The translations under genes were made by a program, and so were the position numbers. The notes below the pieces were generated by a model that was given only the letters and a program-made list of their open reading frames with translations, did not search any database and was not told the DNA's origin. Positions 11,831-12,344 of a stretch of 43,260 nt of DNA are shown here, in pieces (the stretch's first letter is position 1; each line of letters starts with the position of its first letter). This DNA is from Pseudomonas phage Ph_15, in the sequence record PV845595.1; one strand, given 5' to 3'.

Positions 11831-12217
11831 ATGAAAGCGCTAGTCTACAAGATTGCCATTGGACTGGCTCTTGGGCTAGCGCTTTTTTCGTTGTGGTCGT
11901 ATTATTCCCTGCAATTAACTAAGCAGGAATTGGTTACAACTAAAGAAGCGTTAGCGGATAGATCCAAGGAAGTCGAATTTTTAAACACCAGTCTACAGCT
12001 ACGGGATAAAGTAGCTTTGCAGACTGCTGAACGAGAAGGAGCTATTAATGCTCAACTTCAGCGCATCTATGCGACTGTATCTAAATATAAGTCGCAAACT
12101 AATTCTGCATCCGATCAGTGTCTTGGGCTTGTTCCTAGTCCTGAGTTCCTTGAGTGGGTGCGCAGAGCAGAAGCCGATTCCAAGGATAAGTCCGGCGCTG
12201 CTAGTTCCAATAAATAA
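11831..12217 (+). CDS. i-spanin (Rz-like), with an N-terminal TM anchor followed by a coiled-coil periplasmic domain.
   Basis: N-terminal MKALVYKIAIGLALGLALFSLW hydrophobic helix. Helical charged remainder. Immediately follows the endolysin with a GAAGGAG RBS. Confidence 0.65.
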   Translation: MKALVYKIAIGLALGLALFSLWSYYSLQLTKQELVTTKEALADRSKEVEFLNTSLQLRDKVALQTAEREGAINAQLQRIYATVSKYKSQTNSASDQCLGLVPSPEFLEWVRRAEADSKDKSGAASSNK

Positions 12218-12344
12218 ACCTCCTGAGCCAGTAACCTTTCAGGATTATGTTATCTATCATAGGGCGGCTAGCAAGTTATTAGATATGTGTAATGGCCGCC
12301 TTGAGAGCATTGGAGTAGAAAATGGCAACCTCAGTTCCAAATAA
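12048..12344 (+). CDS. o-spanin (Rz1-like outer-membrane lipoprotein) in the +1 frame, overlapping the 3' half of the i-spanin and extending past it.
   Basis: Signal peptide with lipobox LSGC (Cys about residue 38). Proline-rich mature part (PRISPALLVPINKPPEPV). C-terminal Cys. GAAGGAG RBS 7 nt upstream of ATG 12048. Confidence 0.6.
   Translation: MLNFSASMRLYLNISRKLILHPISVLGLFLVLSSLSGCAEQKPIPRISPALLVPINKPPEPVTFQDYVIYHRAASKLLDMCNGRLESIGVENGNLSSK

Follow-up and report, generated by a model that had tools for sequence, protein, structure and literature searches.

A predicted overlapped two-component spanin of Pseudomonas phage Ph_15: conservation across two reading frames, choice of start codon and surrounding lysis genes

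The DNA of Pseudomonas phage Ph_15 (PV845595.1), analysed here over its full length of 43,260 nucleotides ('the window'), contains between positions 11,831 and 12,344 two open reading frames (ORFs) that overlap out of phase, and the question raised by this locus is whether the second ORF, which starts within the first, encodes a protein and, if so, of what kind. The original prediction, made from the letters alone, was that the pair represents an overlapped two-component spanin, with the first ORF encoding the inner-membrane subunit (i-spanin) and the second the lipoprotein subunit (o-spanin). Our analysis indicates that this is very probably correct: considering sequence features and the analogy with characterized systems, the two ORFs would constitute a functional spanin of the overlapped type and form the last genes of a lysis cassette. 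The coordinates of the features that are discussed have been collected in Table 1.

Recomputation of the coordinates placed the o-spanin ORF in the +1 frame with respect to the i-spanin gene, with 127 nt continuing beyond the i-spanin stop, exactly as had been predicted; 170 nt is shared between the two. According to the two-component spanin criteria that were used (Summer 2007; Kongari 2018) this arrangement belongs to the overlapped class, as the o-spanin starts (12048) before the i-spanin stop (12217) and ends (12344) beyond it. The same architecture has been recorded for the near-identical gene pairs of the phages 119X (gp18/gp19) and PaP2, which are both listed as 'ovl' with a 170-nt overlap in the spanin census of Kongari et al. 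2018. The lambda-type class, with an embedded Rz1, does not apply, as the o-spanin gene ends 127 nt outside the i-spanin gene; no Rz1-family Pfam entry was matched at E <= 0.1. Neither does the class of unimolecular spanins (T1 gp11 type), considering the lack of a hydrophobic segment after the signal peptide and the existence of a separate membrane-anchored partner. The gene linkage is that of a spanin pair as well, the +1 overlap being located directly behind the genes of an endolysin and two holin-like proteins. The ribosome-binding site that had been ascribed to the o-spanin itself was found within the i-spanin coding sequence. It is marked as such in the records of the related PaMx phages, and the region around it (12029-12045) did not contain a single variable site among the 13 genomes that were aligned (see below). 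The same heptamer, GAAGGAG, precedes both spanin starts, at a distance of 6 nt for the o-spanin and, at 11816-11822, of 8 nt for the i-spanin (ATG 11831).

The o-spanin product begins with MLNFSASMRLYLNISRKLILHPISVLGLFLVLSSLSG, followed by CAEQKPIPRISPALLVPINKPPEPVTF..., and carries a lipobox LSGC at residues 35-38, an uncharged hydrophobic stretch ahead of the lipobox and the basic residues R9, R16 and K17 farther towards the N-terminus. The signal peptide with lipobox that had been proposed is supported by the fit to the lipoprotein pattern {DERK}(6)-[LIVMFWSTAG](2)-[LIVMFYSTAGCQ]-[AGS]-C and by the fact that Cys38 is invariant in the homologs. To place this in the context of the genome, every six-frame ORF of 50 aa or more in the 43 kb was scanned with an explicit rule of our own (lipobox, uncharged hydrophobic core and net positive n-region). 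The o-spanin was the only one of 147 ORFs with a lipoprotein-like N-terminus, while shuffled sequences yielded 0.07 per window (30 shuffles). The PaMx records likewise report a Prosite lipoprotein signal for this protein. Given the Ala at position +2 and the Glu-Gln at +3/+4, the mature lipoprotein appears to be free of an inner-membrane retention signal. The o-spanin thus combines a signal for signal peptidase II, with a lipobox Cys, and a small mature protein, be it that a signal peptide of 38 aa is atypical. The mature part of 61 aa is proline-rich, as was predicted, with 7 Pro (11.5%) that are all located within mature residues 6-24. The predicted 'C-terminal Cys' was recovered in part: there is a second Cys, residue 81 of 98, which lies in the C-terminal third of the protein, but it is found 17 residues short of the end. 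The AF2 model of the o-spanin, based on an alignment of four sequences, comprised a signal-peptide helix, an extended region (36-63) and a confident helix (64-96; pLDDT 83-92 for residues 51-90). On the profile level, the protein was matched by PF23793, 'Rz1-like lysis system protein LysC' of the P2 type (27.7 bits, E 2.6e-6, at a gathering threshold of 27 bits), with residues 34-88 aligned to positions 2-62 of the 69 profile positions, and by PHROG 456 'Rz-like spanin' (6e-17).

The protein encoded by the first ORF has the organization of an i-spanin, i.e. one N-terminal transmembrane domain in an N-in/C-out topology, followed by a mostly helical or coiled-coil periplasmic domain. Hydropathy and the AF2 helices agree on this point with the original prediction. 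A single hydrophobic segment covers residues 1-23 and is flanked by K2 and K7, and the putative membrane anchor is placed at about residues 3-25. In the single-chain AF2 model (mean pLDDT 78) helices were obtained for residues 2-97 and 104-120, and the break in between (98-103) coincides with the conserved motif C97-L-G-L-V-P, which includes the only cysteine of the protein. For the 119X ortholog one coiled coil, 26-57, is given in the tables of Kongari et al. 2018. The i-spanin was matched by PHROG 15533 'Rz-like spanin' (3.4e-86), a small family of its own, and weakly by PHROGs 739 and 214, both also 'Rz-like spanin'; at the Pfam level no match to LysB was found.

To determine how the two frames have been maintained, related sequences were collected. 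The 3-kb stretch around the spanin pair matched 15 records, from 13 distinct podophages of Pseudomonas aeruginosa, at 97.5-98.9% identity; these include PaMx43, PaMx41, Neko, PaMx35, PaP2, TF17, 20Aug470, PaMx32, FBPa48, PaMx33, PaMx46 and 119X. The first 25 kb of the window is collinear with these relatives at 96-98%, and in their records they are classified as Caudoviricetes; Fredfastierviridae; Jamesmcgillvirus. In view of its length and of the identity, the collinearity and the taxonomy of the relatives, the window represents the complete genome of a Jamesmcgillvirus, about 98% identical to PaP2, PaMx43, PaMx41 and 119X, with a Gram-negative host, in line with the host type that had been predicted, since P. 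aeruginosa, which is Gram-negative, hosts every close relative. The i-spanin is 97-99% and the o-spanin 94-100% identical to the corresponding proteins of 119X (gp18/gp19), PaP2 and PaMx41 (ORF17/ORF18), and the o-spanin is fully identical to the versions of PaP2, PaMx32, PaMx33, PaMx35, PaMx41, PaMx43 and PaMx46.

The homologous 3 kb of 12 phages was aligned with the window, giving 13 genomes. The +1 ORF of 297 nt was open in all 12 close relatives, with the ATG kept and without internal stops. A frameshift disrupting the +1 ORF but not the i-spanin, the observation that according to the original prediction would speak against a spanin, was seen in no relative, close or distant. In the PaP2 record (AY575774) the situation is rather the reverse: a 1-nt insertion after 11843, five codons into the gene, breaks the N-terminus of the i-spanin and leaves the o-spanin intact. 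The N-terminus is intact in the window and in all 11 other relatives. The insertion is probably a sequencing error in an old record, and it explains why both this record and the census place the i-spanin start elsewhere. Within the 170-nt overlap nine sites were variable. Five of these (12064-12169) are synonymous in the i-spanin and change the o-spanin signal peptide or first mature residues (A6V, Y11C, N13S, V25A, Q41R). The remaining four (12179-12197) change the tail of the i-spanin (S117P, S117F, G122D, A123T), two of them being synonymous for the o-spanin. The constraint thus changes frames at about the lipobox codon, acting on the i-spanin ahead of it and on the o-spanin behind it. Of the 6 variable sites in the part that is unique to the o-spanin (12218-12321), 4 were synonymous, although these numbers are small.

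More distant relatives were hard to find. When either spanin was used as query, word-indexed protein searches returned near-identical phage proteins only, a tblastn search of 50,697 phage records (E <= 1) recovered the same 15 records and a scan of IMG/VR with the i-spanin recovered only PaP2. In contrast, an exhaustive HMMER search revealed three small o-spanin homologs with 44-51% identity, and a profile made from these uncovered more. Two further HMMER matches, P0004 (2247 aa) and P0005 (916 aa), were discarded as compositional, considering that their match to the Pro-rich segment was spread over many stretches. The homologs (P0006-P0011) are encoded on short metagenomic contigs of uncultured phages (L015-L021). 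At an identity of 36-47% these relatives retain the overlapped +1 layout and both o-spanin cysteines. More explicitly, they share a lipobox L[SA]GC and a C-N motif, their o-spanin genes run on for 121-127 nt after the i-spanin gene has ended, and the neighbouring genes correspond as well, in the order membrane protein 1, membrane protein 2, i-spanin, +1 o-spanin, orf19 homolog and large structural protein. They differ from the window in having shorter signal peptides and in lacking the tail of the holin-like protein. The layout is illustrated in Table 1 for contig L016 (9.2 kb), whose o-spanin homolog reached 32.4 bits against the Pfam LysC profile; contig L015 has the same layout, with a lipobox LAGC and a 127-nt extension. 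Sixteen positions were invariant among eight o-spanins (L26, L32, S34, G37, C38, S48, L51, L52, P61, D66, Y67, C81, N82, L85, I88 and E91), whereas across the i-spanins only Y86 and C97-L-x-L-x-P were invariant, besides the aligned initiator Met. The +1 ORF is thus the better conserved of the two. This matches a remark of Kongari et al. 2018 on families that include both overlapped and separated pairs, in which the homology of the o-spanin is retained and the i-spanin diverges within the overlap.

Could the +1 ORF nevertheless be a chance open frame that yields no protein, with 12218-12321 serving as an untranslated spacer? The length of an ORF by itself is weak evidence in this genome, as long and probably spurious antisense ORFs are present, such as a 354-aa frame opposite the major capsid gene (8550-9614, minus strand) and the frames 14360-15211 and 381-1112, and several GenBank records of the relatives do not annotate the +1 ORF. 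Yet the frame is open and both cysteines are invariant in relatives at 36-47% identity, in which the i-spanins are down to ~20%. The ORF also has significant matches to Pfam LysC and PHROG 456, provides the sole lipoprotein-like N-terminus in the 43 kb, and its unique part varies mostly at positions that are synonymous in its own frame. The conservation effectively refutes this possibility, which we consider next to negligible and have rejected. Hardly more probable is that the ORF encodes a lipoprotein with another role that merely lies beside a membrane protein gene, for instance in superinfection exclusion by receptor blocking, like T5 Llp or the Cor proteins. Small phage outer-membrane lipoproteins with exclusion functions do exist, but the protein belongs by profile to the LysC/Rz1-like family, and its gene overlaps that of a spanin-like type II membrane protein behind holin-like and endolysin genes, a linkage that is kept in distant relatives in which the endolysin is found elsewhere. 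Moreover, it is part of the late structural operon and not of the early genes. On account of profile membership and linkage this alternative was rejected as well.

Several points weigh against the assignment as a functional spanin and should be set beside this evidence. The literature that was searched contained no experiment on these proteins, so that their function is deduced from sequence features and analogy. The lipoprotein call was made with a home-made rule, and the signal peptide of 38 aa is unusually long, which was flagged by the curators of the census. The score against LysC exceeds the threshold by just 0.7 bits, and pairwise BLASTP of the o-spanin with P2 LysC was not significant (E = 0.89), so that the link to LysC is made by the Pfam profile only. 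Finally, among the close relatives the mature o-spanin showed 7 synonymous versus 6 non-synonymous changes, which is weak evidence of purifying selection. An overlapped spanin remains the best explanation of the locus.

A less settled matter is the start codon of the o-spanin. Given the strong GAAGGAG site that precedes it, ATG 12048 is probably used, which implies a signal peptide of 38 aa without K or R among residues 1-7. An in-frame alternative is Met8 (ATG 12069). In that case the spanin pair would be the same, but the first seven codons would represent untranslated, alternative-frame i-spanin sequence. According to the Prosite lipoprotein rule, the Cys lies within positions 15-35 and K or R is present among the first seven residues; the Met8 precursor satisfies this rule and the Met1 precursor (Cys38, no early K/R) does not. 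In addition, the signal peptides of the distant homologs are 16-18 aa long and start near the position aligned with o-spanin residue 21, the changes A6V, Y11C and N13S suggest that the extreme N-terminus is unconstrained, and the census curators noted that the protein 'might start at a downstream M' (Kongari et al. 2018). On the other hand, the GAAGGAG in front of ATG 12048 is invariant and ideally spaced (6 nt), and the ATG at 12069 lacks a Shine-Dalgarno-like sequence. Two of the three changes, Y11C and N13S, also follow Met8, so that the variation does not separate the two starts, and a long n-region is generally not a block to processing by signal peptidase II. We therefore hold initiation at Met8 to be unlikely, though it deserves to be kept in mind; either start yields a lipoprotein precursor. 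The Met that is used as start by the distant homologs, 16-18 residues before the Cys, is absent from this phage.

The genes upstream of the spanin pair fit the prediction of a complete lysis cassette, with two holin-like membrane proteins and an M15 endolysin, as judged from the PaMx annotation and the M15 profile match. The putative endolysin was matched by Peptidase_M15_4 (PF13539; 30.4 bits versus a cutoff of 25, E 6e-7) and by solved L-Ala-D-Glu endopeptidases (PDB 8q2g, 2.8e-5). Its residues H55, D62 and H107 are the likely zinc ligands, as they align with the H-x6-D ... H positions of 8q2g; the profile match, the H-x6-D and the C-terminal H would make it an M15 endolysin of the T5 type. 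Of its substitutions among the relatives 34 out of 38 were synonymous. The GTG start was correctly predicted to lie inside the 3' end of the second membrane-protein ORF (119 nt within 11197-11598), and it is preceded at 8 nt by AGGAG. The first membrane protein, which showed only synonymous changes among the close relatives and has a homolog in the same position on L016, may be a holin, an antiholin or something else.

In the overlap between the second membrane protein and the endolysin, residues 95-133 of the holin-like protein are read in an alternative frame of the endolysin gene. Of the 16 variable sites within 11497-11590, 15 leave the endolysin sequence unchanged, while 14 alter that of the holin-like protein, whose ORF is nonetheless open in all 13 genomes. 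The L016 counterpart is homologous up to residue 92 only, which is three codons ahead of the endolysin GTG. On L016 (3628-4345) no gene was found between the holin-like gene and the i-spanin, and on L015 (region 746-1511) an M15_3 endolysin without detectable similarity to that of the window is encoded upstream of membrane protein 1. The simplest reading of the three genome types compared is that the two membrane proteins and the spanin pair would form a conserved core, around which the endolysin is exchangeable. Residues 95-133 (39 codons) then look like a by-product of endolysin insertion, a read-through tail without constraint. These observations can be joined in one scenario, in which an exchangeable M15_4 endolysin entered the cassette behind the holin-like gene and ahead of the i-spanin, creating the unconstrained holin-like tail de novo, and in which the o-spanin lost its ancestral start near the hydrophobic core and now initiates 13-20 codons upstream, within the i-spanin. 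This combination falls a little short of being probable. If true, the o-spanin would have one of the longest signal peptides among spanins, and the charge of the holin tail or a slow processing of the lipoprotein could affect the timing of lysis. The insertion and the start shift may so far be undescribed for this phage group.

The cassette is part of a structural operon on the + strand, which runs from the small terminase gene at 2271 to 24041. As predicted, the lysis genes are embedded in this operon, with capsid-proximal genes before and large structural genes (ORF19-23) after them. Orf19, possibly the first tail gene, is tightly linked to the spanin pair, each distant relative carrying a homolog that overlaps the o-spanin gene in the same way. 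Promoter-like sites within 8000-16500 (18, versus 13.5 +/- 4.1 in shuffles) gave no above-chance signal ahead of the cassette, and we therefore do not claim a dedicated lysis promoter. A strong terminator-like hairpin (9713-9739; 11-bp stem, 7 G-C pairs, T-run) is located directly after the major capsid gene and is annotated in the PaMx records too; it is likely an attenuator that lowers downstream expression, including that of the lysis cassette. Phage Shea, a Jamesmcgillvirus that is 98.6% identical to PaP2, has been described as likely pseudolysogenic in a 2026 announcement that does not mention lysis genes (PMC13348215). This lifestyle could bear on the regulation of lysis within Jamesmcgillvirus.

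Table 1. Coordinates of the spanin genes of phage Ph_15, of neighbouring features and of their counterparts on metagenomic contig L016 (contig numbering)
Feature	Coordinates	Strand	Remarks
Holin-like membrane protein 1	10853..11200	+	115 aa; hydrophobic segments, charged C-terminal tail; PHROG 15189 (no assigned function)
Holin-like membrane protein 2	11197..11598	+	133 aa; PaMx annotation 'putative holin, three TMDs'
Endolysin, M15-type zinc L-alanyl-D-glutamate peptidase (predicted)	11480..11830	+	116 aa, GTG start; PF13539, 8q2g
i-spanin gene	11831..12217	+	128 aa, ATG start; ORF list, hydropathy, PHROG, AF2
o-spanin Shine-Dalgarno GAAGGAG	12035..12041	+	6 nt upstream of ATG 12048, within i-spanin coding sequence
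o-spanin gene	12048..12344	+	98 aa, ATG start, +1 frame; lipobox, Pfam LysC, PHROG 456, conservation
Alternative o-spanin ATG (Met8)	12069..12071	+	in frame; 31-aa signal peptide, R at position 2, no Shine-Dalgarno
Lipobox Cys38 codon	12159..12161	+	predicted site of lipidation and of cleavage by signal peptidase II
orf19	12322-12693		123 aa; PHROG 15925 (no assigned function); overlaps o-spanin 3' end by 23 nt
L016: membrane protein 1 homolog	3284-3628		44% identity
L016: holin-like protein homolog	3628-3942		33% identity; 104 aa, without tail
L016: type II membrane protein	3947-4345		132 aa; 20% identity to i-spanin, E 0.002
L016: +1-frame ORF	4200 or 4227 to 4466		LSGC; mature domain 52% identical; ends 121 nt past i-spanin stop
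L016: orf19 homolog	4459-4839		25% identity, E 8e-7
L016: structural protein	4839-8249		1136 aa; takes the place of the 1051-aa ORF 12644-15799 of the window

By analogy with the paradigm of lambda Rz/Rz1 and P2 LysB/LysC (PMC6139136, PMC5295617), the spanin pair would act as follows. The i-spanin would reside in the inner membrane with its helical C-terminal domain in the periplasm, and the o-spanin, once it has received its lipid at Cys38 and signal peptidase II has cleaved it, would be sorted to the outer membrane. The subunits would bind to each other via their periplasmic C-terminal parts, resulting in a bridge that is threaded through the peptidoglycan mesh, and the lone conserved periplasmic cysteine of each subunit (i-spanin C97 and o-spanin C81) would probably form homodimer disulfides. 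A holin, provided by either or both of the membrane proteins encoded upstream, would give the M15 endolysin access to the wall. Degradation of the wall would then free the spanin complexes to collapse, fuse the inner and outer membranes and finish lysis.

Public annotation (PaMx41-type, 2016) and the 2018 census already cover the spanin pair and its overlapped layout, the assignment of holin and endolysin and the fact that the host is Gram-negative. The records of PaMx33/35/41/43/46 describe ORF14 as transmembrane, ORF15 as 'putative holin, three TMDs' (transmembrane domains), ORF16 as 'putative endolysin, similar to T5 endolysin 2MXZ', ORF17 as 'putative spanin Rz-like' and ORF18 as an Rz1-like spanin, with the same ribosome-binding sites. 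The discovery weight of the locus as such is therefore small, the pair having been catalogued in near-identical Pseudomonas phages. The distant metagenomic relatives do enlarge a spanin family that has two members in the census, and provide a small, clean example of frame-specific constraint in a dual-coding region and of endolysin exchange around a holin-spanin core. Among the related GenBank records of Neko, 20Aug470, FBPa48 and PaP2, the o-spanin was unannotated in three and the holin-like ORF in four, and on contigs L016-L019 the metagenome gene caller had cut the o-spanin homolog to 59 aa, with loss of the signal peptide. The missing and shortened o-spanin calls reflect the known tendency of gene callers to pass over overlapped genes, and the practical value of the locus is a reminder that such genes are still missed or truncated.

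When the locus is compared with known systems, the Jamesmcgillvirus phages 119X, PaP2 and PaMx41 show the same genes, coordinates, ribosome-binding sites and neighbours, and differ by point substitutions only, apart from the 1-nt insertion of PaP2. The lambda Rz/Rz1 system likewise combines a type II inner-membrane subunit, with helical periplasmic domains, and a small Pro-rich lipoprotein read in the +1 frame, although sequence similarity to the spanin pair was not detected. The periplasmic cysteines in lambda are C99 and C152 of Rz and C29 of Rz1 (PMC5295617). Rz1 is wholly embedded in Rz, whereas the o-spanin described here extends 127 nt beyond the i-spanin, and Rz1 has a signal peptide of 19 aa and a largely unstructured mature part of 40 aa, compared to 31-38 aa and a mature part of 61 aa with a predicted helix in the o-spanin. 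Closest in organization is the overlapped archetype, LysB/LysC of P2, in which the o-spanin also starts in the +1 frame within the i-spanin gene and extends beyond it. P2 LysC resembles the o-spanin in its build, which consists of a lipobox, a Pro-rich segment and, towards the C-terminus, a helix that carries a Cys. The P2 cassette differs in its lysozyme-type endolysin K and in LysA, whereas here an M15 peptidase is preceded by two membrane proteins. In P2, too, lysC overlaps the next structural gene, R, and the cassette Y-K-lysA-lysB/lysC is located between X and R in a late structural operon, flanked by head/tail completion genes on one side and by tail genes on the other, which sets a precedent for a lysis cassette inside a structural operon.

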